A stretch of 64,000 nucleotides of DNA from an uncultured Myxococcales bacterium (GTDB taxonomy: Bacteria; Myxococcota_A; Polyangia; Fen-1088): positions 1,061 through 65,060 of the forward strand of contig CALAOV010000136.1 in NCBI GenBank assembly GCA_937889515.1. The letters run 5' to 3'. Positions within the stretch are counted from its first letter, which is position 1. Every line of letters begins with the position of its first letter. The notes under the pieces are model-generated. The model was not told the DNA's origin, searched no databases, and worked only from the letters and a program-made list of their open reading frames with translations. Below, one piece after another: positions 28,823 to 47,073 of the stretch. The position numbers were made by a program, and so were the translations under genes.

Positions 28823-28897
28823 CGAGGCGGATAATAGGAGGTCCGCGAATTTCTGGACATGCCGATTTTCTCGGCGGCGTGCTAGAGAGGATCGGCT

Positions 28898-30070
28898 GTG
28901 GGCTCGGCCAACCGTTTTGGCGACGACCTCGACTTCCTGCAACGCCACACCGAGACGGTGGTGCTGTCGGAAGATGGCGGCGAGGCTCGCGTGGCGCTCT
29001 GTCCGGCGCTGCAGGGGCGCGTCGCGACCAGCACCACCGCGGGTCCCGCGGGACCGAGCTTCGGCTGGCTCAACCGCGAGCTGATCGGATCGCGGAAACG
29101 GGTCCCGCACATGAACATCTACGGCGGCGAGGATCGGTTCTGGCTGGGGCCCGAGGGCGGGCAGTTCGCGCTGTTCTTCGCGCCCGGCGCGCCGCAGGAT
29201 CTCGCGCACTGGCAGACGCCAGCCCCGATCGACGCCCAGCCGTTCACGCTGGTCGACAAAGCGCAGGACCGCGCCCTGCTTCGCAAGACGATGCGCCTCA
29301 CCAACGCGTCGGGCACGGTGTTCGACCTCGAGGTCGAGCGCGAGGTGCGGCTGTATCCCGCGGAGCGGACGTGGAACGAGGTGGGCGTGGCCCCGAGCCG
29401 TCGGGTCGCCGTCGTCGGGTTCGAGTCGCGCAACCGCATCACCAACCGGGACGCCGCGCCCTGGCGGTTCGACACCGGGCTCATCTCCATCTGGATCGCC
29501 GGCACCTTCTCGCCATCGCCGTCGACGATCGTCGTCGTGCCGTTCCGCCCGGGGCCGGATTCCGAGCTCGGCCCAGTGGTGAACGACCAGTACTTCGGCC
29601 GTCTGCCGCCCGATCGACTGGCCGTCAACGGGAGCACGATCTATTTCCGCGGCGACGGCCAGCGGCGCAGCAAGATCGGCGTCTCGCCCCGCCGCGCCCG
29701 GCCCGTCCTGGGAAGCTACGCCGCCAGCAACGATGCGGACGGCCACCTGCTGACGCTGGTGAACTACACGCAGCCCGCCGGAGCGCTCGACTACGTGAAT
29801 TCGCTCTGGGAGCGGCAGGACGCGCCCTACAAGGGCGACGCGATCAATAGTTACAACGATGGCCCGGCCGCGCCGGGTGCTGCACCCTTCGGCCCCTTCT
29901 ACGAGCTCGAGACGTCATCGCCCGCGCTGGCGCTCGTGCCCGGCGAATCGGCCGAGCACGTCCACCGCACGCTGCACTTCGTCGGCGCACCCGAGGACCT
30001 CGACGCCTTGGCGCGCGCGTCGCTCGGCGTCGGGATCGCCGACATCACCTCCGGCTTTGCGCCCGCATGA
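28898..30070 (+). CDS. Conserved hypothetical cytoplasmic protein, first gene of the L-fucose catabolic operon (function unassigned)
   Basis: It is 390 aa with no signal peptide. Its stop overlaps the amidohydrolase start. No family was recognised. It contains the segment NIYGGEDRFWLGPEGGQFALFF. Confidence 0.5.
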   Translation: MGSANRFGDDLDFLQRHTETVVLSEDGGEARVALCPALQGRVATSTTAGPAGPSFGWLNRELIGSRKRVPHMNIYGGEDRFWLGPEGGQFALFFAPGAPQDLAHWQTPAPIDAQPFTLVDKAQDRALLRKTMRLTNASGTVFDLEVEREVRLYPAERTWNEVGVAPSRRVAVVGFESRNRITNRDAAPWRFDTGLISIWIAGTFSPSPSTIVVVPFRPGPDSELGPVVNDQYFGRLPPDRLAVNGSTIYFRGDGQRRSKIGVSPRRARPVLGSYAASNDADGHLLTLVNYTQPAGALDYVNSLWERQDAPYKGDAINSYNDGPAAPGAAPFGPFYELETSSPALALVPGESAEHVHRTLHFVGAPEDLDALARASLGVGIADITSGFAPA

Positions 30071-30939
30071 CCAGCGAGATCCCCAGCTTCGTCGATGCGC
30101 ATGTCCACTTCTGGGACGCGGCACGCTTGCCTTATCCGTGGCTGGCGGCGGTGCCGGCCATCGCCGGCCCGCATACGCCGATCGAGCTGGCCACCGAGGC
30201 CGGCGCGCGGCTGCCGGCCGCGATCGTGTTTGTCGAGTCGGCGGTCGATCCGACGCGGGCGCGCGACGAAGTCCGCTGGGTCGAGACGCTGGCGACCGGC
30301 GAACCTCGGATCGCCGCCATCGTCGCGCAGGTGGCGGTCGACCGCGGCGGCGAGACCGAGGCGGCTCTGACGGCGCTCGCCGGCCAGGCGCGCGTGCGTG
30401 GCATCCGCCACAACATTCAGGATTGTCCCGAGCCCGATGCCTGCGTGCGCCCCGCGTTCGTCGCCGGCGTGCGAGGCGTGGGCGAGCGGGGCTGGACCTT
30501 CGATCTCTGCGTCAAGCCGCCGCAGCTCCCGGCCTGTATCGAGCTCGTGCGCGCCTGCCCGGGAACGTCGTTCGTTCTCGATCACGCCGGCAAGCCGGAC
30601 ATCCGGCGCGGGGCGCTGGATCCCTGGCGCACCCACATCGCGGAGCTGGCGCGCCTGCCCAACGTCGTCTGCAAGCTTTCGGGGCTGGTGACCGAGGCCG
30701 ATGCGGCGACCCGGACGCCGGCGGCGCTGCGCCCCTACGTCGATCATCTGCTGGCCTGTTTCGGGGCCGAGCGGCTGCTGTTCGGCAGCGACTGGCCCGT
30801 GGTCAACCTGGCGGCCAGCTACGGTCGTTGGCTCGAAACGGCGCTCGAGTTGCTCGAGCCTCTCTCGGCGGGCGAGCGCGCCGCCGTCATGGGCGACAAC
30901 ACGCGCCGAATCTACGGTCTCACCAGGGGGATGTCATGA
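30067..30939 (+). CDS. Amidohydrolase-2 family protein (L-fuconolactonase-like)
   Basis: FVDAHVHFWD is a metal-binding HxH motif. The gene sits in the operon context. Confidence 0.75.
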   Translation: MTSEIPSFVDAHVHFWDAARLPYPWLAAVPAIAGPHTPIELATEAGARLPAAIVFVESAVDPTRARDEVRWVETLATGEPRIAAIVAQVAVDRGGETEAALTALAGQARVRGIRHNIQDCPEPDACVRPAFVAGVRGVGERGWTFDLCVKPPQLPACIELVRACPGTSFVLDHAGKPDIRRGALDPWRTHIAELARLPNVVCKLSGLVTEADAATRTPAALRPYVDHLLACFGAERLLFGSDWPVVNLAASYGRWLETALELLEPLSAGERAAVMGDNTRRIYGLTRGMS

Positions 30940-31700
30940 CCACGCCGTTTCGACTCGACGGAAAGCATGCGGTGGTGACCGGCGCCGGCTCCGGCATCGG
31001 CCAGGCCATCGCGGAGCTGTTCGCGGCGCAGGGGGCGTCGGTGTTCGTGGTGGATCGCGACGAGCGGGCGGGCCTCGCCACCGTCGACGGGATCCGGGCC
31101 GCGGCGGGTCGCGCCGAGCTGGCGGTGGTCGACGTGGCGGACGAGGGCGCCGTGCTGGGGCTGGCGCGCGCTCTGCCGCCCGTCGAGATCCTGTCCGCCA
31201 ACGCCGGCATCGGTCACGTGGGCGATCTCTCGAACACCGCGGCCGCCGATCTCGACCGGCTGTATGCGGTCAACGTGCGGGGCGTCTTCAACTGCTGCAA
31301 GGCGTTTGCGCCGGGCATGATCGAACGCCGCCGAGGCAGCGTCATCAACATGGCCTCCATCGGCGGCATCGTGGCGGTGCGGCTGCGGCTGGCCTACACC
31401 ACCACCAAGTTTGCTGTGGTGGGCCTCACCAAGTCGCTGGCCCTCGACCATTCGCACACCGGCGTCCGGTTCAACTGCATCTGTCCCGGCCGCGTGGAGA
31501 CGCCGTTCGCCATGCAGCGGATCGCCGAGTCGCCCGATCCCGCGCAGGCCTATCGCGACATGGCGGGGACTCAGCTCACGGGACGGATGGCCAAGCCGGC
31601 GGAGATCGCCGCCGCCGCGCTCTACCTCGCCGCCGACGAGTCGGCCATGGTGACGGGGAGCAGCCTCATGATCGACGGCGGCTGGAGCGCTGGAAAATGA
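30936..31700 (+). CDS. SDR-family dehydrogenase (candidate 2-keto-3-deoxy-L-fuconate dehydrogenase)
   Basis: The Rossmann motif is TGAGSGIGQA. The catalytic residues are S..Y..K (MASIGG...YTTTK). It overlaps both neighbouring genes. Confidence 0.8.
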   Translation: MTTPFRLDGKHAVVTGAGSGIGQAIAELFAAQGASVFVVDRDERAGLATVDGIRAAAGRAELAVVDVADEGAVLGLARALPPVEILSANAGIGHVGDLSNTAAADLDRLYAVNVRGVFNCCKAFAPGMIERRRGSVINMASIGGIVAVRLRLAYTTTKFAVVGLTKSLALDHSHTGVRFNCICPGRVETPFAMQRIAESPDPAQAYRDMAGTQLTGRMAKPAEIAAAALYLAADESAMVTGSSLMIDGGWSAGK

Positions 31701-33055
31701 AACCGCGGAGCGAGAGCAAGAGCCAGAGCGAGAGCGACGGCGCGATCACCAGCTTGCGCGTCGTCGACGTGCGCTTTCCGACGTCGCGGCAGCTCGACGG
31801 GTCGGACGCCATGAACCCGGATCCGGACTACTCGGCAGCGTACGTGATCGTCGGGACCGATCGGGGCGACGGCCTCGAAGGGCACGGGCTCACCTTCACC
31901 ATCGGCCGCGGCACCGAGGTGGTGGTGGCGGGGATAAACGCGATCCGACCGTTGCTGCTCGGCCAACCTCTCGCCGCGTTCATCGAGGCGCCGGGCGCCT
32001 TCGTGGCGCAGCTCACCACCGGCGACAGCCAGCTTCGCTGGCTCGGTCCGGAGAAGGGGGTCATGCAGCTCGCCAATGCGGCGGTCGTGAACGCGCTGTG
32101 GGATCTGTGGGCGAAGATCGCCGGTAAGCCGCTGTGGAAGCTGCTTGCCGACATGAGCCCCGCCCAGATCGTCGAGCTGGTCGACTGGCGGTACCTGTCG
32201 GACGCGCTCACCCCCGACGAGGCCCGCCGCTCGCTCGACCGCCTGGTGCCCACCCGCGCCGCGCGCGAGGCCGAGCTGCGCGAGGTCGGCTACCCCGCGT
32301 ACACCACCTCGGTCGGATGGCTCGGTTACCCCGACGACAAGATCCGGCGCCTCTGCCGGGAGGCGCTCGACGCCGGCTTCACGCGCTTCAAGATCAAGGT
32401 GGGCGCCAACCGCGACGACGATGTCCGTCGCGCCGCGCTGGTGCGACAGGAGATCGGCCCCGACGGCGTTCTCATGATCGACGCCAATCAACGCTGGGAC
32501 GTGGGCCCGGCCATCGAGTGGGTGACCGCCCTGGCGCCCTCGAAGCCGCTCTGGATCGAAGAGCCGACCAGCCCCGACGACATCCTGGGGCACGCCGCGA
32601 TCGCCCGCGCGCTGGAGCCGCTCGGCATCGGCGTGGCCACCGGCGAGATGGTCTCGAACCGGGTGGTGTGGAAGCAGCTGCTGGCGGCGCGCGCGGTTTC
32701 GTTCTGCCAGCTCGACTTCTGCCGGATGGCCGGCGTCAACGAGATGGTGGCGACGCTGCTGCTCGCGGCGCGCTTCGGCGTCCCGGTCTGCCCCCACGCC
32801 GGCGGCGTCGGCCTCTGCGAATACGTGCAGCACGCGTCGATGTTCGACTATGTCGCGGTCAGTGCCGGGCTCGAGCGGCGGTCCATCGAATATGTCGATC
32901 ACCTGCACGAGCACTTCGTCGACCCTTGCGTGATCCGTAGCGGGTGCTATCAGGTTCCGACGGCGGCCGGGACCGGCATCACCATGAAACGCAGCTCGCT
33001 GGAGGCCTACAGCCATCCCGGCGGGTCGATCTGGAAGGAGATTCTCGCGACATGA
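31697..33055 (+). CDS. Enolase-superfamily dehydratase, L-fuconate dehydratase-like
   Basis: It is a 452-aa mandelate racemase/muconate-lactonizing-enzyme-type protein (KIKVG, IDANQRWD, EEP). Its size and context match FucD. Confidence 0.8.
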   Translation: MKPRSESKSQSESDGAITSLRVVDVRFPTSRQLDGSDAMNPDPDYSAAYVIVGTDRGDGLEGHGLTFTIGRGTEVVVAGINAIRPLLLGQPLAAFIEAPGAFVAQLTTGDSQLRWLGPEKGVMQLANAAVVNALWDLWAKIAGKPLWKLLADMSPAQIVELVDWRYLSDALTPDEARRSLDRLVPTRAAREAELREVGYPAYTTSVGWLGYPDDKIRRLCREALDAGFTRFKIKVGANRDDDVRRAALVRQEIGPDGVLMIDANQRWDVGPAIEWVTALAPSKPLWIEEPTSPDDILGHAAIARALEPLGIGVATGEMVSNRVVWKQLLAARAVSFCQLDFCRMAGVNEMVATLLLAARFGVPVCPHAGGVGLCEYVQHASMFDYVAVSAGLERRSIEYVDHLHEHFVDPCVIRSGCYQVPTAAGTGITMKRSSLEAYSHPGGSIWKEILAT

Positions 33056-33852
33056 AAATCGTTCGTTATCTCGACGGCGCGGGACGCGCGCACCACGGAA
33101 CCGAGGCGGACGGCCGCGTCCTGCAGATCGAAGGCGACATCTTCGGCGACCACGCGGTCACCAAGAAGACCGCCGAGGTCGCGCGCTTGCTGGCGCCGGT
33201 CGAGCCGAAGCAATTTCTTGGCATCGGCCTGAACTATCGACGCCACGCCGAGGAGACCAACGCCAAGATCCCCGAGTACCCGATCCTGTTCATGAAAGGC
33301 GTGAACGCCGTTGCCGATCCGGGCGGGCCGATCGTGATTCCGGGCCACCTGCCGAGCACCGAGGTCGACTACGAGTGCGAGCTGGCCGTCGTGATCGGAC
33401 GCGCGTGCAAGAACGTGTCACGGGAGCGGGCGCTCGACTACGTGCTCGGCTACACCTGCGCCAACGACGTCTCGGCCCGCGACTGGCAGATCCGCAACGG
33501 CAGCGGTCAGTGGTGCCGCGGCAAGACCTTCGACACCTTCGCGCCGCTCGGCCCTTGTCTCGTCACGCCCGACGAGATCCCCAATCCCAACGCGCTCAAG
33601 ATCGCCACCATCCTCAACGGCGAGCGCGTTCAGGATTGGACCACTTCCGACATGATCTTCGACGTGCCGCGCCTCATCGAGTTTCTGAGCGGCAGCACCA
33701 CGCTGGTGCCGGGCACCGTCATCTTGACCGGAACGCCCCACGGCGTCGGCATGGCCCGAAAGCCGCCCCGCTGGCTCAAGCCCGGCGACGTCGTCACCGT
33801 CGAGATCGAGGGGATCGGCCAGCTCACGAACCCGGTCGTCGCCGAGACGTGA
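33052..33852 (+). CDS. Fumarylacetoacetate hydrolase (FAH) family protein, 2,4-diketo-3-deoxy-L-fuconate hydrolase-like
   Basis: The motifs are GLNYRRHAEE and ECELAVVIG. Confidence 0.8.
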   Translation: MKIVRYLDGAGRAHHGTEADGRVLQIEGDIFGDHAVTKKTAEVARLLAPVEPKQFLGIGLNYRRHAEETNAKIPEYPILFMKGVNAVADPGGPIVIPGHLPSTEVDYECELAVVIGRACKNVSRERALDYVLGYTCANDVSARDWQIRNGSGQWCRGKTFDTFAPLGPCLVTPDEIPNPNALKIATILNGERVQDWTTSDMIFDVPRLIEFLSGSTTLVPGTVILTGTPHGVGMARKPPRWLKPGDVVTVEIEGIGQLTNPVVAET

Positions 33853-34063
33853 CATCCCGGGCGCGCGAGCGCCTGGCCCGCAGGGCGACCAGCAGCATCG
33901 CCGCGCCGAACGCCAGGAGCACGAGCCCCCAGTCGAGGTTGACGTTGATACCGAGCGAGTGCTCCGCGTAGATCCCCGGATCTGAGACGAGCCCGAAGCC
34001 GGCGAGCAACACGCCGAAGACCGAGAACATCAGGCCGATGGGCAACCGTACGTCGAGATCCAT
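33824..34063 (-). CDS. Small two-TM membrane protein downstream of the symporter gene
   Basis: It is 79 aa with two hydrophobic helices. It may be a small partner of the SSS transporter. Confidence 0.35.
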   Translation of the reverse strand: MDLDVRLPIGLMFSVFGVLLAGFGLVSDPGIYAEHSLGINVNLDWGLVLLAFGAAMLLVALRARRSRARDVTSRRRPGS

Positions 34064-34074
34064 GCGCGGTCACC

Positions 34075-35798
34075 TCACCAAAAGACGATGTTCAAGACCA
34101 GCGTCAGCGTCAACACCAGCAGACCGAGGATCGCCGGCCGCTTGTACCAGGCCACGTCGTCTTCCTTCGGTCGGGGCGTCAACGCGTAGACCAGGCCGGC
34201 CAGCTCCCCGTCGGATTTGCGCTGTCTGGTGGCGAGCGAAACGCCCACGGTGGCGATGAAGCAGGCGGAAAAAGCCCAGATCGCGGTCCAGAAGTTCTGC
34301 GCCATCTCGCTCGGATACTGGTGCAGCCCGGGGCCGAGAATCGACAACCAGCCGCCCTTGATTCCCACTTCGGCACCCGCCGCTAACGACAACCGTGGTG
34401 GGCGGCGGCGGCGGCGGTGCCGGCCAGAAGGCCGAAAAAGGCGCCATGTCCCGTCGTCCGCCGCCAGAACATCCCGAGCAGGAAGGTCGCGAACAGCGGC
34501 GCGTTCACAAAGGCGAACACCAGCTGCAGGACGTCCATGATGTTGTTGAACTTCGCCGCCGTGTAGGCACAGGCGATGCTCGCGGCGATCCCCGCGATCG
34601 TCGCGGCGCGCCCCACGGCCAGATAGTGGGCATCGCTGGCCTTCGGGCGGATGTACGCCTGATAGATGTCGTAGGTCCAGACGGTGTTGAAGGCGGTGAC
34701 GTTGCCCGCCATCCCCGACATGAACGAGGCAATCAGCGCCGTCAGCCCCAGACCCAGCAGGCCACTCGGGAAGTAGTGGGCGAGCATGGCCGGCACGACC
34801 ATGTCGTAGTTGAGGCTGCCGCCGTTGCTCGGAAGCGAGAAGTGCGCGCCGCCGCCCGCGTCGGTGGTCAGCGCGATGGCCAGCATTCCCGGCAGGATGA
34901 CCAGGAACGGGAACAGCATCTTGGGGAACGCGGCGATGATCGGCGTCCGCCGGGCCGCGCTCATGTCTTTGGCCGCCATGGCGCGCTGGACGACCAGGAA
35001 GTCGGTGCACCAGTAGCCAAACGACAGGACGAAGCCGAGACCCATGGCGAGCCCGAACCATTCGACGCCCATCGGGTTCGATTGCGCCGATCCGGCGAAT
35101 TTCCACGAGTGTGACCAGGCGCCCTCGGGCATTCCGTTGCGCGTGGCCACGACCGCCAGTCGGCTGGTGAGGCCAGACCAGCCGCCGACCTGCTTGAGAC
35201 CGAGCAGCACGAGCGGCAAGAAGCCGAACACGATCAGGAAGAACTGCAGAACCTCGTTGTAGATGGCGGAGCGCAGGCCGCCGGTGAAGGTGTAGACAAA
35301 CACGATCGCGCCCGAAGCGGCGATGCACAGATGCAGGTTCCAGCCCAGGATGGCGCGCAGCAGGGTCGCGAGCGCGTACATCGATATCCCCGAGGACATG
35401 ACGGTCATGCCGGCGAACGTCACGGCGTTGAGCCCGCGCGTCTTCTCGTCGAAACGCAGCTTGAGGTACTCGGGAACCGAGCGCGCCTTCGAGCCGTAGT
35501 AGAACGGCATCATGAAGACGGCCACGAACACCATGGCCGGGATGGCGCCCAGCCAATAGAAGTGGCTGGTCATGATCCCGTACTTCGCCCCGGAAGCCGC
35601 CATCCCCATCACTTCCTGCGCGCCGAGATTGGCGCCGATGAACCCGAGCGCGCAGATCCAGGCCGGCAGGGCCCGCCCCGACTCGAAGAAGTCCTTCGTC
35701 CCGCTGACGCCCTTCTTCACCACGAAGCCGATGCCGAGGACGAACGCGAAGTACACGATCAGCAGGCAGTAATCGATGACGCCGAGGTGTATGAGCAT
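34075..35798 (-). pseudogene. Sodium:solute symporter (SSS family) gene with a -1 frameshift near 34390-34395
   Basis: The N-terminal 470 aa (MLIHLGVIDYCLL...LAGTAAAAAHHG) lie in one frame. The C-terminal helix and tail (LSLAAGAEVGIKGGWL...LNIVFW*) lie in another. Restoring one T in GGTTG would join them. This could be a sequencing error. Confidence 0.6.
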
Positions 35799-35875
35799 CG
35801 GATTCTGGTTGCGGCGCGAATTTACTACGCATGGCGGCACGCAGCGGATACGATTTGCGGAAAGGTGAGGGCCCG

Positions 35876-36388
35876 ATGTCGTTTCATTTTGCTTATCCAA
35901 CAGTCATCCTCTGCGGCTTGGCCTGGCTCGGGTGCGCGAGCGTCCCGCTGGGCGCCACGACCGAGGAGCTCGCGCGGGCGCGCGACCAGACCGCACAGGG
36001 CGGGACGGTATTCGCGAACGAGTGCGCGAGCTGCCACGGCCAGCGCGGCGAAGGACTCGCGAACGCTGGGGCGATCCTGGGGCCGGCTGCCCTGCCCGAG
36101 TATCCGCGGAGCGAAGGCGTGGGCGACCCGACGGTCACCGACCCTCAGCTGATCCAGATCCAGGCGCAGTCGCGGCCCGCGGGTGCGGCCTGGCGGGACC
36201 CGTTTCGAAACGCCCAGGATCTGTACACCTTCACGACCACCCATCTGCCCAAATCTCATGCGAGCGCGCTCAAGGATGGCGACTACTGGGCCGTGGTGAG
36301 CTTCCTGCTCGCGGCACAGGGAGCGAGCTTGCCACAGGGCGGCATCGGGCCCACCAATGCGGCCTCGATACCAATTCCCAAGCGCTAA
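35876..36388 (+). CDS. c-type cytochrome lipoprotein
   Basis: The signal peptide with lipobox is CGLAWLGC. The heme-binding motif is CASCHG. Confidence 0.6.
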   Translation: MSFHFAYPTVILCGLAWLGCASVPLGATTEELARARDQTAQGGTVFANECASCHGQRGEGLANAGAILGPAALPEYPRSEGVGDPTVTDPQLIQIQAQSRPAGAAWRDPFRNAQDLYTFTTTHLPKSHASALKDGDYWAVVSFLLAAQGASLPQGGIGPTNAASIPIPKR

Positions 36389-36649
36389 CGGCGACTTGGG
36401 ATAGATGCCTCTGCGCGATCCTGTGGCGCCGGGGCGCTTCTGTCCCGGGCGCAATATTATTCGGAACGGCGAGAATGGTTTTGTTCGGCTTGGCGACGAT
36501 GTTATGAGAAGTTCCGGTTGCCTCAAGACACTAAAGAACAATTACCCCTTTCCGCCTTTGAGACTTGAACCTTCCCACTCCGGTATTCGTCTTCGATTCG
36601 CGCGGCTGGCCCGGCAAGCCCGCCTCCGGGTCGCTCCTTGACGGTTCGT

Positions 36650-38194
36650 ATGCGATTCCGTTGCGCGTTCGTCGTACCCGTCGCGCTGCTTCTCGTTTCT
36701 GGAGCAGCGCGCGCCGACGACGCTGCGTCCCCCGCGCCCGTCGAGGCAATTACTCCCCCCGCGCCGACCGATTCCTTGCCGGGATCGCCGACCCCTCCCG
36801 GTCTGGGATTATCGCCGGAGGCGCCGCCGGTGCCGCCGGCGCCGGGCGGGAGGGCTCCTTCATTCGGTGCGCCGACGGACGTCCGATCCTCGTCGTTTCG
36901 GATCGGGGGCCGGATCTACGGGTGGGAAGCGGTCGGGGTTGGAGAGAAACCAGGCAATCCGCCGCCGGGCTATTCCGGAACCCCCCTGCACGTCCCGATG
37001 CTCTCGGCGGGCAAGATTCCATTTTGGGGTGGGGCGGGCGGCAGCCTGAATATGCAATACGGCACGCCGGTCGTGACCGCCTTCGTCAGCTACTACTACC
37101 GCGTCAACAGCGAGTCGTTCCAGGGCTACACGAACCCGGGATCGGGGCCGGCCTTCGGCACGGCTTACCTGCTGTTGACGCCGGCGCCGATCAAGACCCT
37201 GCGACTGCAGTTCCGCATCGGCGCGCTCACGGAAGTGTATGCGGGACCTGGCCAGTGGGGGTGGGGCATCTTCGGGCCCATGCTGGCGCTCCGCGGCTAC
37301 GGCGAGACGACCACCGGCGAATGGGACCTGACGCGGGACGCGCGGGTCAGCTTCGTGCAGGGGCTGCTGGTCGTTCCCGGGGTGCCCGAGGACTTCGCGC
37401 GCGGCAACTACAACTCCTATATCGAGACGGGCGTCTCGAACTACGTGAACCACGCCCACCTTGGAATCGTTCTCAAGAATCAGTACACCTTCAAGCTGCA
37501 CTACGCGTCGGACCACGGAACGGACGACCGCAAGTACCTGCTGACCTTCCTGCGCACCCCGCCGCAAGACGGGCGGATGGACACCTATATCGCCGAGGCG
37601 CGCTGGCAGAGCTACCCCTGGGGACAGGTCGGGGTGAGCGGCGGTCTTTACGACTTCGTGCACGCCGCATCGGTCAGCGACGGCGTCTGGTGGGGCGTCG
37701 ACTTCACGCAAGGCGCCAAGGACATGATCAACAAGTTCCTGGGGCCGCAGAGCCTGGGAAACGGCAAGGTCGCCGTGGCCGGGGCGGAGTACAACTTCAG
37801 TCTCTCCAGCATTCTGTGGGCGCCGCGCACCTTCACGGGTCAGTCGGCAGACCTGCGGGTCGCCATCGCGGCGATGATCACGCGGACGGTCGCGACCGAC
37901 GACCCGAATTACAAGAACATGAACGGGTACTACTGCGGGCTCGAGACCGAGTACCGCATGTCGTCGCTGTTCAGCCTGACCTTCCAGGCCTACGGCGAGG
38001 ACCGCTACACCAACATCGGCACCTACAGCGTCTACAGCCTCAACCCGGGCGTCGCGTTCCACACCGATTGGCTCAGCACCGATCGCATTCAACTGATCTA
38101 CGGCCGGCGATTTTACAGCCAGGCCGCGGACCCCAACACGGCCCAGCCGCTCGACCGTAACATGATCGCGCTCGGCGGCTACCTCACCTTCTAA
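36650..38194 (+). CDS. Secreted protein, candidate outer-membrane beta-barrel, paralog 1
   Basis: It has the signal peptide MRFRCAFVVPVALLLVSGAARA and amphipathic beta-strand periodicity. The C-terminal residue is Phe (ALGGYLTF). Confidence 0.5.
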   Translation: MRFRCAFVVPVALLLVSGAARADDAASPAPVEAITPPAPTDSLPGSPTPPGLGLSPEAPPVPPAPGGRAPSFGAPTDVRSSSFRIGGRIYGWEAVGVGEKPGNPPPGYSGTPLHVPMLSAGKIPFWGGAGGSLNMQYGTPVVTAFVSYYYRVNSESFQGYTNPGSGPAFGTAYLLLTPAPIKTLRLQFRIGALTEVYAGPGQWGWGIFGPMLALRGYGETTTGEWDLTRDARVSFVQGLLVVPGVPEDFARGNYNSYIETGVSNYVNHAHLGIVLKNQYTFKLHYASDHGTDDRKYLLTFLRTPPQDGRMDTYIAEARWQSYPWGQVGVSGGLYDFVHAASVSDGVWWGVDFTQGAKDMINKFLGPQSLGNGKVAVAGAEYNFSLSSILWAPRTFTGQSADLRVAIAAMITRTVATDDPNYKNMNGYYCGLETEYRMSSLFSLTFQAYGEDRYTNIGTYSVYSLNPGVAFHTDWLSTDRIQLIYGRRFYSQAADPNTAQPLDRNMIALGGYLTF

Positions 38195-39750
38195 TGATGA
38201 TGAACCCGAACCGAAAGCACTCGACGATGCACACCGTCCTTTCGGCAACCCGGCGTTCGGGAATCATCTTCCTGGCCGTGCTCGCCGCCCCCGCGATGGC
38301 GTCGGCCGCCGTCGGCGGCGCGGACGACGGGGTTCCCAGGCTCGGCCTCGACCCCGGCGAGCCCCAGTCCCCCAGCCCGCCCCCGGCGGTCCCGTTCGGC
38401 GTCCACCCGGCCGAGTCGAAGGAGTACGTCCTCGATTTCCACGGGTACCTGCTGCTGCCCGCCTACCTTGGCCTGCACGAACGCGTGGACCCGCAGCCCG
38501 GACAGAGCAGCGAGGTCCTCCACTCGCCGCCGCTCGTTCCCCAGAACCTCCGGGACTTCCAGTACACGGGCGTCGTGCCGAGCCCCTGGCTGCAGCTCAA
38601 CTTCATCTACGGCAACTCGACGGTATCGGCCACGGTCATCGTGGCCGGCACCAGCGCCATAGACGCGGCGGGATACTACGACCCGGTCGCCCAGATGGGC
38701 GTGAACGACGCCTACCTGACGGTGAACGTCACCAAGTGGCTCGGCATCCCCCTCCAAGTAAACGTCGGCGCCCTGACGGGTCGATATGGCGCGATGGGCG
38801 GCTACGACGCCGGGCGCTACGGCACGCCGCTCATCGCCCGGACGAACACCGTCGGTGAGACGATCACGGGGAGCCTCAAGCTGGGCGGCGATCTCTTCCT
38901 CATGTTCGAGCAGGGGCTCGGTGGCCAGCTGGGGCGTCCCCCGATCGGCCTGGTGCCGGCGGGCTGGAACGACTTCGCGAACGCCAACGTGGGCGCGACC
39001 TTCGTCAACCACGCGCACGTCGGCCTCGCCTATGCGCAGCTCCTCCGTTTGGGCTTCCACTACCTGACCGCCTGGACGCAGGACGACCTCGCCGATGGTG
39101 GTGGAGGTCAGATACCCGACGGGCGGATCACGGTGCTGGGCGCCGACGTCAACCTGACCGCGGGACGCGCGGGTCATCTCTACTTCGGGGCGACCCACAC
39201 CTGGGCGACCAACGCGTCCACCGTGTCGGGTGCGATCGAGATCCTGAACGCGCGCGGCGGGCCGGAGCTGGTCGCGAATTACCTCGGTGCGCAGAGCAAC
39301 GGCAACGGCTCTCTGACCATCTTCGGCGGCCAGTACGATCTCAGCCTCGCGAGGCTGGTTTTCGGGCAATGGTACACGGGCAACAGCCCGGATGTCCTCA
39401 TCAGCTTGTTTGGCGTCGGGGCGAAGGTGAGCAGTCAGGACCCGGCACAAAACGGTGTGCTCAAGCTGAAGGGCGGCGTCGAGGCCACCTACACCTTCCA
39501 GTCCTGGATGGGTGTGTCGGAGCGGTTCGATCATGTTCGCGAAGACAACAGCGACTCGAAACAGGCCTTCACCAGTCTTTCGTCACGCCTCCTGTTCCAC
39601 ACCGGCTGGAGGAGCCGCAACGAGATCGCGCTCCAGTATGTCTACTTCGTCTACGGCAGCAGCGTGGAGGCCCTGACGGGGTATCCTCCGACCACGGAAG
39701 TGAACCCGGATCGTCAGGTCTTTTCCTTGACCGGGACCATCTGGTGGTAG
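38194..39750 (+). CDS. Secreted protein, candidate outer-membrane beta-barrel, paralog 2 (same length as paralog 1)
   Basis: It has a signal peptide. It shares the NHAHLG/NHAHVG block with paralog 1, and the C-terminal residue is Trp. The start overlaps the upstream stop (TAATG). Confidence 0.5.
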   Translation: MMMNPNRKHSTMHTVLSATRRSGIIFLAVLAAPAMASAAVGGADDGVPRLGLDPGEPQSPSPPPAVPFGVHPAESKEYVLDFHGYLLLPAYLGLHERVDPQPGQSSEVLHSPPLVPQNLRDFQYTGVVPSPWLQLNFIYGNSTVSATVIVAGTSAIDAAGYYDPVAQMGVNDAYLTVNVTKWLGIPLQVNVGALTGRYGAMGGYDAGRYGTPLIARTNTVGETITGSLKLGGDLFLMFEQGLGGQLGRPPIGLVPAGWNDFANANVGATFVNHAHVGLAYAQLLRLGFHYLTAWTQDDLADGGGGQIPDGRITVLGADVNLTAGRAGHLYFGATHTWATNASTVSGAIEILNARGGPELVANYLGAQSNGNGSLTIFGGQYDLSLARLVFGQWYTGNSPDVLISLFGVGAKVSSQDPAQNGVLKLKGGVEATYTFQSWMGVSERFDHVREDNSDSKQAFTSLSSRLLFHTGWRSRNEIALQYVYFVYGSSVEALTGYPPTTEVNPDRQVFSLTGTIWW

Positions 39751-39757: not shown

Positions 39758-40669
39758 ATGAGCTTCAGGCGGACATCGGAGGTGTTTCTCTTCGCTCTCG
39801 GGGGCGCGTTCGGATGCAACGCCTATCCGACGCTGAGGCCCGTCCCGGTCGACTGCACCGCCGACGCCGCGTACGACATCCAGTACATCTATACCTTCGA
39901 CACGGTTGCTTCGACCAACTTCTATGGCTCCGGCGACCACCTCGACGCCGACGTCTCTACGGCGCCGGTGATTCAACCCCTCACCGACGGTCCTCGCTGC
40001 GGCAGCACGAATGCGCTCCTGCTCCACACGGACCACAACGACGATTGGGGATCGCTGTTCGGGATCTACTCCTTCGGACCGAGGCCCGAATCCGCCTACC
40101 AGGGGCTGTCGTTCTGGGCGCGCTCTCCGGGCAACACCAGCAAGGCCTTCACGGTCTTGCTCGACGACACGAACACGGAGAACCTGGCGCAGCCCGCGAT
40201 GTGCAGCCTCGACGCCGGCACGCCCCCGAGCCCGGTAGATGGCGGCTCGGCCGTCTGCAAGAACTACTGTATGCCCGACGGGGGAACCGGCGGGGCGTCG
40301 TACGCCATCAATACGTTGACCGGCCAGCCCATCGGAGGCGTGACCACCAATGCGCCTCCGCCCGACGCGTGCGGAAACAGCTACTACGTCGTGGCACAGG
40401 TAACGTCCGGTTGGCAGTTTTACACCTTTCCGTTCACGGCGTTCCGACAGCTCGCGGAGCCGAATCGGGTGCCCAATGCCAATTTTCCCGACACGGAGTC
40501 GACGCCCGGAACCCACCTCCTGACCTCCGCTTTGATGGGCCTCACCTTCCGCATGCCGCCGGAGGCGGACATGAACCTCTGGCTCAGCCATCTGGGCTTC
40601 TACCGCCCCAAGGTGGGTGGGGGTGGCGATGGGGCCGTCGATGCGCCAAAGGATGTGACAGGGCAGTGA
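39758..40669 (+). CDS. Hypothetical lipoprotein
   Basis: The lipobox is LGGAFGC. It sits in the GH74 operon. Confidence 0.45.
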   Translation: MSFRRTSEVFLFALGGAFGCNAYPTLRPVPVDCTADAAYDIQYIYTFDTVASTNFYGSGDHLDADVSTAPVIQPLTDGPRCGSTNALLLHTDHNDDWGSLFGIYSFGPRPESAYQGLSFWARSPGNTSKAFTVLLDDTNTENLAQPAMCSLDAGTPPSPVDGGSAVCKNYCMPDGGTGGASYAINTLTGQPIGGVTTNAPPPDACGNSYYVVAQVTSGWQFYTFPFTAFRQLAEPNRVPNANFPDTESTPGTHLLTSALMGLTFRMPPEADMNLWLSHLGFYRPKVGGGGDGAVDAPKDVTGQ

Positions 40670-40742: not shown

Positions 40743-41666
40743 ATGAAGGGAGCAATTTTCATGAGCACGAATCTTCGAGTTGAAAATCTACTGGGAATTC
40801 TTTTCGTCGGCTGCGGGCTTCTCGCCTGCACGACTCAGGCGGCCCCAACCGGAACCGGCGGCAGCGGAGCCGGGACCAGCGGCAGCGGAACCGGCGGTGG
40901 TGGCGGCGGGACCACGGGCACCGCCGGCGCCGGCGGTGGTGCATACGCGGCGAGTGATGGCGTGCTGTGCCTCCCGCCCGCGGCGACCGGTCTCATAACC
41001 AACTTCACCTACGCGCCGGCGGACGGCGCCACCCCCGTGACGGATCAGGTGGCCTTCGGAGACAATACGACGACGTTGTCGGGCGGTGAGTTCGTCTATC
41101 CCAACGCGTCTTCGACCAGCGCGTACAAGCTCGTCTCCGACGTGACCGGCAGCAACTGGCATATCACCGCACCGGCCATGGTCGGCGACTACTCGGGGTT
41201 CGGGTTTTTCTTCCAGTCGGGCTCCGCCGGCTGCAACCATATCAATGCGACGGGCTTCAAGGGGATCTCGTTCACCATCTCCGGCACGGTGCAGGGTGGC
41301 TCGCTCACATTCGAGGTCGATACCTTGAACGACACCATCAAACCGGCATGGCTCACGGCCCACGCCGGCACTCCGGGAGCCACCGACCCCGGCGCTTGCG
41401 ATCCCGGTGGCACGGCCGCGACCACTCAGTACACGCAGACTGTTTGCGTGGAGCCCACCACGGCCATCACGGTCGGCTCGACTCCGACCACGGTGAACGT
41501 GTTGTGGAGCCAATTCACGAACGGCAAGACGGACCCGAGCCCGGTACCGACCGATATCGTCGGCATCCGTTGGGTGCTTCCTGTGCCGGCGCAAATCGGT
41601 ACGGCCACCGTCGTGACGTATCCGCTCGACATCACGGTCGACAACATCACGTTCATTCCCAATTGA
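40743..41666 (+). CDS. Hypothetical lipoprotein with Gly-rich linker, possibly carbohydrate-binding
   Basis: The lipobox is LFVGCGLLAC. A Gly/Thr/Ser linker is followed by a beta-sandwich-like domain. Confidence 0.45.
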   Translation: MKGAIFMSTNLRVENLLGILFVGCGLLACTTQAAPTGTGGSGAGTSGSGTGGGGGGTTGTAGAGGGAYAASDGVLCLPPAATGLITNFTYAPADGATPVTDQVAFGDNTTTLSGGEFVYPNASSTSAYKLVSDVTGSNWHITAPAMVGDYSGFGFFFQSGSAGCNHINATGFKGISFTISGTVQGGSLTFEVDTLNDTIKPAWLTAHAGTPGATDPGACDPGGTAATTQYTQTVCVEPTTAITVGSTPTTVNVLWSQFTNGKTDPSPVPTDIVGIRWVLPVPAQIGTATVVTYPLDITVDNITFIPN

Positions 41667-41671: not shown

Positions 41672-42382
41672 ATGTCGCGTGGGTTGACCGCAACCGCATG
41701 GCTCGCCGTCCTCGCTCTGGGGACGGCGGGCTGTCTCTGCCCTTGCCCCAATGGGGTCATGGCGGCCGCGCCGGCGACCGCCGGGGGGGCGATTCCGGGC
41801 GCCGCCGCGATGCCCGCCGCCGGCGGCAGGCCGGTCGCGACGGGCGGCCGGCTCGTGATCTGGGACGGAGACGGAGCGGGAAACGGAGCACAGGGGTGGG
41901 ACGCTTGCGACCCGAAGGCCGGCTGCAGCAAGGTCGGGATCGATTCGGGTAGCGGCACCAGCGGCAGCACCAGCATCAAGATGCACGGCGACGGGCCGGG
42001 GTATCTCGGGATGGGCTGGAACCTGTTCGGGTGGTACCCGGAAAACGCCGGGGTCGACCTGGGGCCGTATACCCATCTGACGTTCCAGATCCGCGTTGAG
42101 GCGAAATCGCCCGCCGACGCGCCGGACCCTGGCTCCGTCGGCGTGTTGCTGGGATGCAGCCGGAACAAGAACGACAGCGCGACCGTCACCGTCGAAAGGT
42201 ACGCGAAGGGATTCACGGACGGGAAATGGCACAAGGTCGAGATCCCGATCGCGATGTTCACCAAGGGAGCGGGCTCCAAGTTCGACCTGCAGTCGTTCTG
42301 GGAGTTTAGGATTGCCACCTGGAGCGCCGCGGCCCGCCACTTCAACATCTACATCGACGACATCGCCGCCGAAAAGCAGTGA
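41672..42382 (+). CDS. Lipoprotein with CBM-like domain
   Basis: The lipobox is LGTAGC. The domain reads IWDGDGAGNGAQGWDAC...FWEFRIATW. Its stop overlaps the GH74 start. Confidence 0.45.
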   Translation: MSRGLTATAWLAVLALGTAGCLCPCPNGVMAAAPATAGGAIPGAAAMPAAGGRPVATGGRLVIWDGDGAGNGAQGWDACDPKAGCSKVGIDSGSGTSGSTSIKMHGDGPGYLGMGWNLFGWYPENAGVDLGPYTHLTFQIRVEAKSPADAPDPGSVGVLLGCSRNKNDSATVTVERYAKGFTDGKWHKVEIPIAMFTKGAGSKFDLQSFWEFRIATWSAAARHFNIYIDDIAAEKQ

Positions 42383-44733
42383 CAGTGGTGGGCCGCCACG
42401 GTCACCCGCGTCCTATCTTCTCCGCGGTCTGGGTGGCGGTCGCCGCGTGGCTGGGCATTTGCGTGGCGTGCGTCGATACCGGGCGCTCCGCTCCGGCGGA
42501 CGCCTCCGCCGGGCCGGGCCCCGTGCAGCCCGTCACCTGTGCGCCGGCACCGCCCGTCGCGTACTCCGGCAATGCCGTCATCCCCTCGGGCGATACGGCG
42601 ATGGCCGGCCCCTACGCGTGGAAGAACGCCGTCATCAAAGGTGGGGGCTTCGTCAGCGGCATCATCACGAGCCCAGCGCTCAAGGGACTCGTCTTCGCGC
42701 GGACGGACGTCGGAGGCGCCTACCGTTTCGACCCCGCCAACCAGCGCTGGACGCCGCTCACCGATTGGGTCGGGCATAGCACTCCGGGGCTCGTCGGGAT
42801 CGAGAGCATTGCGGTGGACCCGGTCGATCCCAACAAGGTCTATGTCGCGGCGGGGCAGTACCTCGGCTCCGGCAACGGCACGATCCTGAGCTCGACCGAC
42901 ATGGGACGCACCTGGAACCAGAACAACATTTCCGCGCCCATGGGCGGCAACGCGGACGGGCGCTCGATGGGTGAGCGGCTGGCGGTCGATCCCAACCTGC
43001 CCAGCACGTTGTACTTCGGCTCGCGCAACGCGGGCCTGTGGAAGAGCACGGACTCCGCGCAGACCTGGACGCAACTTGCGGGTTCCCCATCTGTCGACGG
43101 CGTAGGTGCCGGCAACAGCCCAGGGACGGGGTACGGGTTGACGTTCGTGGTGTTCGATCCGCAGAGCGGCTCGCCGGGAAGCGCTACCCCGGCGATCTAC
43201 GTCGGCGTCGGCACGACCACTGGGCCTAGCCTCTATCGTTCCACCGACGCCGGCGCGACCTGGGCCGCGGTCGTGGGGACGCCCGCCGGCATGATGCCGC
43301 ACCATGCGGTCCTGGATGGCTGCGGCGACCTCTACCTCACGTACAACAACGGCTCTGGTCCCAACAGCGTGACCGCCGGCGCCGTCTGGCGATACACGCC
43401 GCCGATCGGGCTCTGGACCAACGTGAGCCCTCCCGGCGGTGGCTTCGGTTTCGGCGGAATTTCAGCCGACGCCGCTCATCCGGGAACGCTGCTCGTCACG
43501 ACGATCGACGACTGGTCGCCCGGCGCGGTCTACCGGACCATCGACGGCGGCGCGAGCTGGACGCCACTTCCCGGCGCGTCGCACGGGAATGTGGCGGGCG
43601 CGCAATGGCTCTACTGGCACACCAGCAACCTGCCCGCGATGGGCTGGATGGGCGACATCGAAATCGACCCCTTCGATTCAAACCATGCCCTCTTCATCAC
43701 GGGCCAAGGCCTCTGGTCGAGCGACGACGTCACGACGGCCGACAGCGGCGGCGCGACCAGCTGGACCTTCGCCGACGACGGTCTCGAGGAGACGGTCGTG
43801 CTCGACCTCGCCAGCCCTCCGGCTATCGCTCCGGCCGTCGTCGCCCCCCTGCTGAGCGGGGTCGGCGACATCGGCGGGTTCCGGCACGACGACCTCACCG
43901 TCTCGCCCACGAGCGGCATGTCCGCCAATCCGATCTTTGGCAACACGAGCAGCCTCGACTTCGCCGAGAGCGCGCCGCTCGTCGTCGCGCGCGTGGGCAC
44001 GGCTTCGTCGTCCCCCAAGCAAACCGGCGCCTATTCCACGGACGGAGGCACGAGCTGGACGGCCTTCGCCAACCTTCCGACGGCAACCGGAAGCACCACG
44101 CCGAACTCGGGATCGATCGCGGTCGCGGCCGATGGCAGCACCTTCGTCTGGGTTCCGAAGAGCGGCACGCCCTCTTACACGACGGACAAAGGCACGACCT
44201 GGACGGCGTCGACGGGCCTCACGTCGGGCGCGCTGGTGGCCTCCGACCGGGTCAATCCTTCCAAGTTCTACGCGAGCGGCCGGGGCACGATGCTCGTGAA
44301 CACCGACGGCGGCCAGACGTTCAAGGCGACCACGGCCACCTCGTCCGGGCGGCCGCGCCCCGTGTTTGGCATCGAGGGGGACGTTTGGGCGTCCACAAGC
44401 AGCGGCCTGATGCGCTCGCAGGACTCGGGCGCGACCTGGCAGCCGGTGGCCGGGGCGACCGGCGCCAGCGCGGTGGGCTTCGGGATTCCGGCGACGCCAG
44501 GAGCCTACCCGGCCGTATTCCTGGCGGGCTCCGTGATGCTCCCCGGCTCCGCCACCGCTGTCTGGGGCATTTACCGCTCCGACGACGCCGCGATGAATTG
44601 GCAACGAATCGACGATCCGCAGCACCAGTTCGGGAGCATCGGCGTCCTGGCCGGCGACCGCAACCAGTACGGCCGGGTCTATCTCGGCACCGGCGGGCGG
44701 GGAATCGTCTATGGCGATCCGCAACCGCAATAG
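42379..44733 (+). CDS. GH74-family (xyloglucanase-type) BNR/Asp-box twin-propeller lipoprotein
   Basis: The N-terminal block WKNAVIKGGGFVSGIITSP...VFARTDVGGAYRFD is GH74-like. There are multiple SxDxGxTW repeats. It is 784 aa. Confidence 0.75.
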   Translation: MTVVGRHGHPRPIFSAVWVAVAAWLGICVACVDTGRSAPADASAGPGPVQPVTCAPAPPVAYSGNAVIPSGDTAMAGPYAWKNAVIKGGGFVSGIITSPALKGLVFARTDVGGAYRFDPANQRWTPLTDWVGHSTPGLVGIESIAVDPVDPNKVYVAAGQYLGSGNGTILSSTDMGRTWNQNNISAPMGGNADGRSMGERLAVDPNLPSTLYFGSRNAGLWKSTDSAQTWTQLAGSPSVDGVGAGNSPGTGYGLTFVVFDPQSGSPGSATPAIYVGVGTTTGPSLYRSTDAGATWAAVVGTPAGMMPHHAVLDGCGDLYLTYNNGSGPNSVTAGAVWRYTPPIGLWTNVSPPGGGFGFGGISADAAHPGTLLVTTIDDWSPGAVYRTIDGGASWTPLPGASHGNVAGAQWLYWHTSNLPAMGWMGDIEIDPFDSNHALFITGQGLWSSDDVTTADSGGATSWTFADDGLEETVVLDLASPPAIAPAVVAPLLSGVGDIGGFRHDDLTVSPTSGMSANPIFGNTSSLDFAESAPLVVARVGTASSSPKQTGAYSTDGGTSWTAFANLPTATGSTTPNSGSIAVAADGSTFVWVPKSGTPSYTTDKGTTWTASTGLTSGALVASDRVNPSKFYASGRGTMLVNTDGGQTFKATTATSSGRPRPVFGIEGDVWASTSSGLMRSQDSGATWQPVAGATGASAVGFGIPATPGAYPAVFLAGSVMLPGSATAVWGIYRSDDAAMNWQRIDDPQHQFGSIGVLAGDRNQYGRVYLGTGGRGIVYGDPQPQ

Positions 44734-44754: not shown

Positions 44755-47073
44755 ATGACGATGACGAGAAGACTTTCCTGGACGGTGTCGTTGGCAGCGA
44801 TCGCGACGGCGTTGGCTCAACCCGGCTGCAAGGTGTGCGAGTGCACCGCCGCCGCGGCGACGCCGGTCAGCGCCGCGACGGCGGCAGCGTCCGCGCAGGC
44901 GCCGGGCGCATCCGCGGCGACGCCCGCCGGCGGCGGCCTGACCGGCAAGGTGGCCTACAACTGGAAGAACGTCGCCATCCTCGGCGGGGGATTCGTCAGC
45001 GGTATCGTCTTCAGTCCCGTCGAGAAGGATCTGGTCTATGCCCGCACCGACGTGGGCGGCGCGTATCGGTTCAACGCGGCCGACAAGACCTGGATCCCGC
45101 TGACCGACCAGCTCGGGCGCGATTCGAACTTCTTCGGCATCGAAAGCCTCGCGGCCGATCCGGTCGACGCCAACAAGGTGTACCTGGCCGGGGGCACCTA
45201 CACCGGGTCCTGGGTCGGCAACGGCGCCATCCTCCGCTCGAACGATCGCGGCGACACCTGGCAGACCATCGACATGCCCGTCAAGATGGGCGGCAACGAG
45301 AACGGCCGCTCGATGGGCGAACGGCTCGCCATCGACCCCAACCTGCCCAGCATTCTCTACTTCGGGTCACGTAAAGCCGGCCTCTGGAAGAGCGCGGACT
45401 CGGGGTCGACCTGGGCGAAGGTCGACAGCTTCTCGGCCTCCGACAACGACAAGGGAATCGGCATCCCGCTGGTCCTGTTCGACAAGCGCAGCGGCACCAA
45501 TGGCAAGGCCACGCCGACCCTCTACACCGCCGTCGCCAACAACGCGGGCAGCCTCTACCGCAGCACCGACGCCGGCGCGACCTGGAAGCTGGTGCCCAAG
45601 CAGCCGACGGACCTGATGGTCAGCCACGCGCAGTTCGACTCCGCCGGCGCGCTGTACCTCAGCTACCAAAATGGGCCCGGCCCCAACGACGTGACGGACG
45701 GCGCGGTCTGGAAGTACGATCCCAAGGCCGAGAAGTTCACGGACATCACGCCTTCCGCCCCAAAGGGCGACGACAAGTTCGGCTACGGCGGGCTGTCGCT
45801 CGACGCCGCGCACCCGGGCACGATCATGGTCAGCACCATCGACCGGTGGACCAAGGGGGACGAGATTTACCGGACGACCGACGCCGGCAAAAAATGGAAA
45901 GCGCTCTTGCCCAAAGTCGTCCGTGACGACGCCGGCGCGAAGTATCTCTACTGGCACAAGTCAGAGCCGATCGGTCGGGGCTGGATGGGCGACATCGACA
46001 TCGATCCGTTCAACCCGGGGCGCGCGATGTACGTGACCGGGGCGGGGATCTGGGCCACCGAGGACGCGACCGCCGCGGATTCGGACAAGCCCACCCACTG
46101 GACCTTCCTGGACCGCGGGCTCGAGGAAACGGTCATCAAAGACCTGGTGAGCCCCCCGGCGGGACCGCCGCTGCTGAGCGCGATGGGCGATCTCTGCGGC
46201 TTCCGGCACGACGACCTCGGCGTGCCCTCGAAAGACGGGATGTTCGACAATCCGCTCTGCGGCTCGGCCAGCGGAATCGACGTCGCCTGGAGCAAACCGG
46301 AGATCGTCGCGCGCGTCGGCTGGGCCGACAAGCAGCGATGGGGAGCCACCTCCGCCGACGGCGGCAAGACCTGGACGCCTTTCAAATCCGTGCCCAAGGG
46401 CAAGGGCGCCGGCTCGATCGCGATGTCGGCGGACGGCACGGCCCTCGTGTGGGCGCCCCTGGAAGGGCCGGTCGTCTTTTCAAAGGACCAGGGCGCGACC
46501 TGGGCCCGCGCCGAGGGGCTCCCGGACGCGGAGCCATCTCCGGACTGGGCGCCGGTACCCTTCAGGCCGGCCGCCGACCGAGTGAACGGCAAGAAGTTTT
46601 ACGTGCTCGACGCCAAGGGCGGGCAGGCGTTCACCAGCGTGGACGGCGGGGCCCACTTCACCGCTTCGCCGACCGGGCTGCCCGCGCTGGCCGACTACCA
46701 GTTCGGCTCTTCCTCGGCGCAGGCCACCCCCGGGATCGAGGGCGACGTGTGGCTCACCAACTTCAAAGAGCTCAACCACTCGACCGATTCGGGCAAGACC
46801 TACGAGGCGATCTCGGGCGTGAGCGAGGCCTATGCCTTCGGCTTCGGCAAGGCGGCCGACGGCAAGAAATATCCGGCGCTGTATCTCATCGGCAAGATCG
46901 GCGACGTGGTGGGCTTCTTCCGCTCCGACGACGTCGGCGCCACCTGGGTGAGGGTCAACGACGACCAGCACCAGTACGGCTTCTGCGGCGTCATCATCGG
47001 CGACCCCCGGGTGTACGGCCGCGTCTACGTGGGAACCGGCGGCCGCGGGATCGTGTACGGCGAGCCGAAGTAG
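44755..47073 (+). CDS. GH74-family (xyloglucanase-type) BNR twin-propeller lipoprotein, paralog
   Basis: The N-terminal block is WKNVAILGGGFVSGIVFSPVEKDLVYARTDVGGAYRFN. The blocks are collinear with the upstream paralog. Confidence 0.75.
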   Translation: MTMTRRLSWTVSLAAIATALAQPGCKVCECTAAAATPVSAATAAASAQAPGASAATPAGGGLTGKVAYNWKNVAILGGGFVSGIVFSPVEKDLVYARTDVGGAYRFNAADKTWIPLTDQLGRDSNFFGIESLAADPVDANKVYLAGGTYTGSWVGNGAILRSNDRGDTWQTIDMPVKMGGNENGRSMGERLAIDPNLPSILYFGSRKAGLWKSADSGSTWAKVDSFSASDNDKGIGIPLVLFDKRSGTNGKATPTLYTAVANNAGSLYRSTDAGATWKLVPKQPTDLMVSHAQFDSAGALYLSYQNGPGPNDVTDGAVWKYDPKAEKFTDITPSAPKGDDKFGYGGLSLDAAHPGTIMVSTIDRWTKGDEIYRTTDAGKKWKALLPKVVRDDAGAKYLYWHKSEPIGRGWMGDIDIDPFNPGRAMYVTGAGIWATEDATAADSDKPTHWTFLDRGLEETVIKDLVSPPAGPPLLSAMGDLCGFRHDDLGVPSKDGMFDNPLCGSASGIDVAWSKPEIVARVGWADKQRWGATSADGGKTWTPFKSVPKGKGAGSIAMSADGTALVWAPLEGPVVFSKDQGATWARAEGLPDAEPSPDWAPVPFRPAADRVNGKKFYVLDAKGGQAFTSVDGGAHFTASPTGLPALADYQFGSSSAQATPGIEGDVWLTNFKELNHSTDSGKTYEAISGVSEAYAFGFGKAADGKKYPALYLIGKIGDVVGFFRSDDVGATWVRVNDDQHQYGFCGVIIGDPRVYGRVYVGTGGRGIVYGEPK

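Follow-up and report, generated by a model that had tools for sequence, protein, structure and literature searches.

In a 64,000-nt stretch of an uncultured Myxococcales metagenome-assembled genome (MAG), hereafter called the window, two adjacent plus-strand genes head an operon that also encodes two GH74 xyloglucanases. We term these genes A (36638–38194) and B (38194–39750). Their products are paralogues, each predicted to form an 18-stranded outer-membrane β-barrel without a plug, and we think it fairly probable that they are channels of the LamB/ScrY fold that pass xyloglucan oligosaccharides passively within a locus resembling a polysaccharide-utilization locus (PUL). An earlier reading of the window, based on its letters and open reading frames (ORFs) (the original prediction), had proposed a family-specific oligosaccharide porin pair serving xyloglucan uptake. 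That proposal is supported by the predicted fold, by a gene order conserved together with GH74 in about 30 loci, by matches to the Bacteroides protein SGBP-B among orthologues of a protein encoded downstream (P5), and by the placement of distant family members in other glycan loci.

The paralogy of A and B is real, as a BLASTP alignment joins them across 489 aa (26% identity, E = 5e-27). The two had also been described as equal in length, and this part of the description does not hold: both come to 518 aa by mechanical ORF calling, from a TTG start in A and an ATG start in B, such that the equality is an artefact of start-codon choice, and we reject it as a meaningful feature. Starting A instead at the ATG at 36650, as the original prediction did, gives a protein of 514 aa. 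The first ATG of the B ORF overlaps the A stop codon by 1 nt (TAATG), whereas most related loci have a B start 15 to 18 nt beyond the end of A, and M12 of the window protein is the residue that lines up with the family consensus; M12 (38227), which would yield ~507 aa, is most likely the true start of B. Public annotation of a protein identical to A (P0003; also P0013 and P0019) begins at M121 and yields only 398 aa, so that signal peptide, linker, and first strand are all missing (A residues 1–120, window 36638–36997). Because homologues cover 100% of the 518-aa ORF, we take the longer form as correct and, on this alignment evidence, read the 398-aa records as a gene-start error in the source annotation.

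In both N-termini, a basic stretch leads into a hydrophobic one and then an Ala-x-Ala site; these are the Sec-type signal peptides anticipated by the original prediction. Read directly from the sequence, cleavage falls after MTVRMRFRCAFVVPVALLLVSGAARA in A (...LLLVSGAARA, followed by DD) and, counting from M12, after HTVLSATRRSGIIFLAVLAAPAMASA in B (...AVLAAPAMASA, followed by AV). The NHAH(L/V)G block noted previously is indeed common to the two proteins (VNHAHLG at A 270–276 and VNHAHVG at B 271–277), and its second His is invariant in both the A and B families, as well as throughout an alignment of 48 family members. The aromatic C-terminal residues, F in A (...GGYLTF) and W in B (...TGTIWW), recur across the family: among the 150 representatives listed, 83 are full-length and 80 of those have an aromatic end.

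AlphaFold2 models made from 54-sequence alignments (pLDDT 77.7 and pTM 0.76 for A; pLDDT 75.0 and pTM 0.77 for B) bear out the earlier proposal of β-barrels: in each, 18 long antiparallel strands are joined by turns that are mostly short on one side and by longer loops on the other. The barrels are modelled with high confidence, and low confidence is limited to the signal peptide, a ~60-residue Pro-rich linker, and some loops. The predicted layout of A comprises the signal peptide (residues 1–26), the conserved Pro-rich linker (~27–85), and the barrel (86–518); its long loops are L1 (32 aa), L6 (34 aa, containing a helix), and L4 (19 aa), and its L3 is short (14 aa) and Gly/Trp-rich, with the conserved sequence GPGQWGWGIFGP. 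When compared with solved structures by Foldseek, both models have their top TM-scores with ScrY and LamB.

Neither A nor B has a Pfam or NCBIfam match at E ≤ 0.1, including to the LamB/ScrY family (PF02264), or a sequence match in the PDB; a profile of 48 family members retrieves only noise from the PDB (GFP and a T-cell receptor), and ten distant members match no porin family in Pfam. There is thus no sequence-level link to porin families, and the assignment of A and B as porins rests on predicted structure and genomic context. The original prediction was right to separate them from the classical TonB-dependent transporters (TBDTs) of the SusC type: they have 18 strands instead of 22, no plug domain (PF07715), and no TBDT match in Pfam, for which reasons we reject a TBDT identity.

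Alternating hydrophobic patterns, another mark of β-barrels put forward in the original prediction, are seen across the 18 predicted strands but are strong in only part of them. In an analysis of hydrophobic periodicity across the family, the outer face is clearly hydrophobic in strands S1–S5, S7, S13, and S18, whereas the contrast between faces is slight in several of S6–S16; the outer faces of S6 and S8–S12 are weakly hydrophobic and bear conserved polar residues, which may fit a protein-protein interface. The same periodicity assigns to the lumen side a large number of aromatic positions that are conserved (e.g., Y153, Y177, Y201, Y221, W229, Y317, W323, Y338, F340, Y452, and Y493), as well as charged residues and histidines (R88, R92, H272, H274, H288, E384, E438, R456, and R491). 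Three of the latter form an invariant or near-invariant His trio on the neighbouring strands S8 and S9 (H272, H274, and H288 in A, window 37451–37501; H273, H275, and H289 in B), which, if it does face the lumen, could form a polar track or bind a metal or ligand. The N-terminal Pro-rich segment (A ~45–79, window 36770–36874; B ~46–72, window 38329–38409) is predicted to be disordered and yet is almost invariant, and both paralogue families share the motif P-x-LGLSP...PSFG (more fully, P-x-LGL-S-P ... P-S/x-F-G-x-P), which might gate or plug the channel, tether the barrel, or bind a partner.

Gene order, which we assessed by tblastn of window proteins against all fetched loci, ties A and B to xyloglucan degradation. 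In about 30 loci from Polyangia MAGs, the order is cytochrome c, A, B, P3, P4, P5, GH74a, GH74b, and these loci include ones with A proteins merely 53 to 60% identical to that of the window. Even in the most divergent locus (L035, with 48% identity in A), A-B-P5 is kept, while GH74, P4, and the cytochrome lie upstream and are encoded on the opposite strand, and in another locus (L045) the A-B-P3-P4-P5 module is present without GH74. B follows A in all 36 loci in which the contig continues, the three apparent exceptions stopping at a contig edge, and the two genes either overlap by 1 nt or are separated by a conserved ~15-nt spacer.

As anticipated, the operon headed by A and B encodes GH74 enzymes: the products of GH74a (42379–44733, plus strand) and GH74b (44755–47073, plus strand) match the solved GH74 xyloglucanases 6p2m (E = 1.8e-162 and 7e-178, respectively) and 2cn2 (E = 2e-155 and 1.8e-171). 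They are 49% identical to each other, and GH74a has a Cys-containing, lipoprotein-like N-terminus. The three plus-strand genes lying between B and GH74a also encode proteins with Cys-containing, lipoprotein-like N-termini. P3 (303 aa; 39758–40669), whose gene directly follows B in related loci, has an invariant Cys20 after a hydrophobic segment and is weakly similar to CBM11, with 4 of 20 orthologues matching Pfam CBM_11 (best E = 2.8e-5) and no Pfam match for the window copy. P4 (307 aa; 40743–41666), conserved in position, has a lipobox (..GLLAC) and a Gly/Ser/Thr linker; its last strand, DITVDNITF, resembles strands of carbohydrate-binding modules (CBMs), and it has no solid match in Pfam or the PDB. 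P5 (~236 aa; 41672–42382; N-terminus MSRGLTATAWLAVLALGTAGC...; homologues of 230 to 245 aa) resembles, chiefly through its orthologues, the xyloglucan-binding domain of SGBP-B, as well as galactose-binding-like domains: 10 of 17 orthologues match PF18329 (SGBP_B_XBD) at E ≤ 0.05 (best E = 4.1e-7), and two of them (P0442, 31.2 bits; P0503, 28.4 bits) exceed the Pfam gathering score of 26.4 bits. The window copy of P5 does not match SGBP_B_XBD even at E = 10 and finds only Exop_C (E = 0.018), and profiles of P3, P4, and P5 retrieve nothing significant from the PDB. Because hhalign probabilities among these three proteins are only 6 to 39% (the highest being that between P4 and P3), we make no claim that they are paralogues.

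A and B belong to a sizeable family that has so far been found only in MAGs of the Polyangia (Myxococcota) and is unannotated in Pfam and NCBIfam. Homologues numbered at least 318 in one word-indexed search and at least 523 in another; all are labelled hypothetical, none has a Pfam domain, and those with an organism name all derive from Polyangia MAGs. When 1.84 billion cluster representatives were searched exhaustively with a profile, 667 clusters matched at E ≤ 1e-3 (442 at E ≤ 1e-10). The organism names recovered are Polyangia, Polyangiaceae, Myxococcales, or unclassified proteobacterial MAGs, from fen, permafrost, and soil. Among the 83 full-length representatives, the B type, with its C-terminal ...MWW, predominates, and the A type constitutes a smaller sub-clade. 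Tandem pairs of B-type barrels occur in two loci (L046, 8076–11614; L039, 2–2553), and a Polyangiaceae MAG has adjacent B-type and A-type barrels (P0246 and P0415; locus tags VGJ84_21505 and VGJ84_21510). Given these other tandem arrangements, pairing seems to recur within the family and to extend beyond the xyloglucan module.

Distant members of the family, which share 26 to 40% identity with B, are found in other glycan loci, and subgroups are associated with cellulose (GH48/GH9/GH94), mannan (GH5/GH27), and GH44 loci. In L044, a barrel and a CBM-like lipoprotein are encoded with GH48, GH9/CBM4_9, and GH94; in L046, the two B-type barrels and P3-like and P4-like proteins adjoin GH3 and GH44; and the locus of P0257 consists of a GH5 mannosidase, proteins of 237 and 338 aa, and a barrel, with two GH5 genes and a GH27 gene further downstream. 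In the P0302 locus, a 629-aa family member is followed by an unannotated 565-aa protein and is surrounded by a sugar ABC transporter, an FGGY kinase, an aldose epimerase, and GH9. A single barrel in L043 has GH5 ~4.6 kb and GH48 ~8.4 kb downstream, and L047 combines an A-type pair with GH74 and GH95.

By what is predicted of their structure, A and B resemble sugar-specific porins of the LamB/ScrY type and probably work like them. LamB and ScrY are likewise encoded with catabolic genes for a glycan, a linkage that for A and B takes the form of GH74 and glycan-binding lipoproteins and, for other subfamilies, of cellulose, mannan, and GH44 loci. ScrY also has an N-terminal periplasmic extension. 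The likeness lies in the predicted 18-stranded fold; sequence similarity is undetectable (structural alignments have 10 to 13% identity). Moreover, A and B are ~100 residues longer than LamB and ScrY, and differ from them in forming a conserved paralogue pair, in their conserved Pro-rich linker, in having a short, Gly/Trp-rich loop 3 along with long loops 1 and 6, and in being embedded among glycan binders that resemble surface lipoproteins. Other 18-stranded, substrate-specific channels, namely ChiP and the OprD/Occ family, are also among the closest known systems.

In gene arrangement, the operon resembles the SusC/SusD and SGBP PULs of Bacteroidota, in which genes for outer-membrane transporters are followed by those for surface glycan-binding lipoproteins and then for an endo-xyloglucanase; the xyloglucan locus of Bacteroides uses SusC/D together with SGBP-B (PMC4850273), the protein whose xyloglucan-binding domain is matched by P5 orthologues. 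The xyloglucan locus of Xanthomonas shares its enzyme families with the window (GH74, GH31, GH35, fucosidase, and esterase) and encodes two TBDTs that are required for oligosaccharide uptake (PMC8245568). Whereas SusC and other TBDTs are 22-stranded and TonB-dependent, A and B are 18-stranded and, lacking a plug, presumably passive; no SusD homologue was detected, nor any TBDT domain among the large window ORFs scanned.

We infer that A and B reside in the outer membrane and that they carry xyloglucan fragments inward, past lipoproteins that would be exposed at the cell surface. There, the lipoproteins (the SGBP-B-like P5 and the weakly CBM11-like P3) and the GH74 enzymes would capture and cut xyloglucan, and the oligosaccharides would diffuse passively via A, B, or both into the periplasm. 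A periplasmic GH31 α-xylosidase, GH35 β-galactosidase, GH29 fucosidase, and acetyl esterase, all encoded in the window, would then debranch them, and the products would be imported by a sugar ABC transporter and an SSF symporter. The scheme supposes pores wide enough for branched oligosaccharides of 1 to 1.5 kDa. Since their pairing is conserved, A and B could form hetero-oligomers; they may work as one joint channel or as two that differ in specificity.

Several observations weigh against such sugar channels. Even profile searches (Pfam, NCBIfam, and PDB) link the family to no porin family, and the family is known from MAG sequences alone. Xyloglucan oligosaccharides, being branched and of ~1 to 1.5 kDa, are wider than maltodextrins. 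Two well-studied Gram-negative xyloglucan systems, the Xanthomonas locus (PMC8245568) and the Bacteroides ovatus PUL (PMC4850273), use TBDT/SusC-type transporters, and the distant locus L046 has a TBDT 7 kb away from its barrels.

Four other roles for A and B can be weighed against this evidence. The barrels might serve mainly as a docking or translocation platform that holds or exposes the five lipoprotein-like products of the operon (P3 to P5 and the GH74 enzymes), rather than as a substrate channel. CBM-like lipoproteins strictly accompany the barrels, also where GH74 is missing (L045) and in the distant loci L044 and L046, and both the weakly hydrophobic outer faces of S6 and S8–S12, with their conserved polar residues, and the Pro-rich N-terminal motif conserved in both paralogues may suit such a platform. 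However, the nearest folds are open sugar channels, we know of no LamB-fold exporter of lipoproteins, and docking and transport are not mutually exclusive; we consider a primarily docking role unlikely. That A and B are general-diffusion porins, or porins for some other substrate, that merely adjoin xyloglucan genes appears to us quite improbable, since the operon is conserved and tightly spaced (with order and tight or overlapping junctions kept across loci in which A is down to 48% identical) and different subfamilies track different glycan loci. The barrels also have 18 strands, not 16, and their best structural matches are to sugar-specific porins.

The two remaining roles are the least probable of the four. 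One is that of barrels that secrete a polymer, such as AlgE, Wzp, or PgaA; AlgE and Wzp are also 18-stranded outer-membrane barrels that handle glycans, and Wzp is present in Myxococcota (PMC9603273). The module, however, is full of hydrolases and binding proteins, and inspection of it revealed no gene for a synthase, OPX/Wza, Wzx/Wzy, or a glycosyltransferase; with this catabolic context and a weak fold match, we rejected an exporter of the Wzp/PgaA type and hold polysaccharide export to be highly improbable. The cytochrome c gene that immediately precedes A in most loci could instead suggest an electron conduit, by analogy to the porin-cytochrome complexes of Geobacter, which contain multi-haem cytochromes (PMC4282303). 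Against this, the cytochrome is ~170 aa in size and has one haem motif, its gene points the other way in L035 and L047, none was detected beside several distant members, and a terminator-like hairpin lies between the gene and A. With a monohaem cytochrome and only a weak structural match to MtrB, a conduit of the MtrAB or Pcc type was rejected as well, and we give it next to no credence.

Returning to the sugar channels, a broader version, which we put forward as speculative and rather doubtful, would join A and B in one hetero-oligomeric channel of the LamB fold, onto which the SGBP-B-like and CBM-like lipoproteins and GH74 dock, with the Pro-rich motif as a gate or tether. This energy-independent machine for capture and import, together with sister subfamilies for cellulose, mannan, and other β-glycans, would be the Polyangia counterpart of SusC/D in Bacteroidota. 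The soil, peat, and permafrost metagenomes that yielded these loci are rich in Polyangia, and our literature searches found no paper on this protein family, on xyloglucan loci of Polyangia, or on how Polyangia take up fragments of plant polysaccharides. The data on A and B point to a solution different from TBDTs, namely lineage-specific channels of the maltoporin fold that are often paired and are combined with carbohydrate-binding lipoproteins. If so, PULs in Myxococcota genomes could be located in practice with the family as a marker, and it would provide a test case for a passive porin that carries bulky, branched oligosaccharides.

The cytochrome-like gene (35831–36388, plus strand) encodes a monohaem c-type protein with a single CASCH motif (Pfam Cytochrom_C, E = 3e-7). 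The product in the source annotation is 170 aa, and translation probably starts at M16; the N-terminus is lipoprotein-like, and no Met follows the CASCH motif. The gene lies on the same strand as A in most related loci, and one possibility is that its product serves an oxidative carbohydrate enzyme as redox partner. Between this gene and A, the low-GC leader described in the original prediction is confirmed (36389–36637, plus strand), with a GC content of 0.57 to 0.59 versus ~0.65 to 0.70 in the flanks, and contains the hairpin (36434–36452, plus strand). An Rfam scan of the leader yielded no family and only a sub-threshold eukaryotic match, a scan for sigma-70 promoters found none, and terminator counts are at chance level. 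About 70 to 80 nt upstream of the A start, the conserved motif CTTTGAGACTTGA (36556–36568, plus strand) has a single occurrence in the window, where 0.03 would be expected, and in 11 loci a single copy likewise precedes A; it is probably a promoter or operator.

The window as a whole represents an extended fucogalacto-xyloglucan region (14–8363 and 25276–35900). Its first part encodes a SASA-type esterase (14–1120, plus strand), GH35 (2237–3913, minus strand), GH29 with an F5/8 type C domain (3926–5377, minus strand), and GH31 with a PA14 domain (5493–8363, plus strand), the last of which casts a 1,020-aa shadow ORF on the minus strand (5448–8510). The second part encodes a sugar ABC transporter (25276–29746, minus strand), the SDR, MR_MLE, and FAA hydrolase proteins of a fuconate-pathway-like set of catabolic enzymes (29859–33852, plus strand), and an SSF symporter (34383–35900, minus strand). 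A LUD/Fe-S protein is also encoded in the window, as is a 2,214-aa ORF (49498–56142, minus strand) with Big_1 (bacterial Ig-like) repeats and a CarboxypepD_reg-like domain, which is possibly a giant surface protein.

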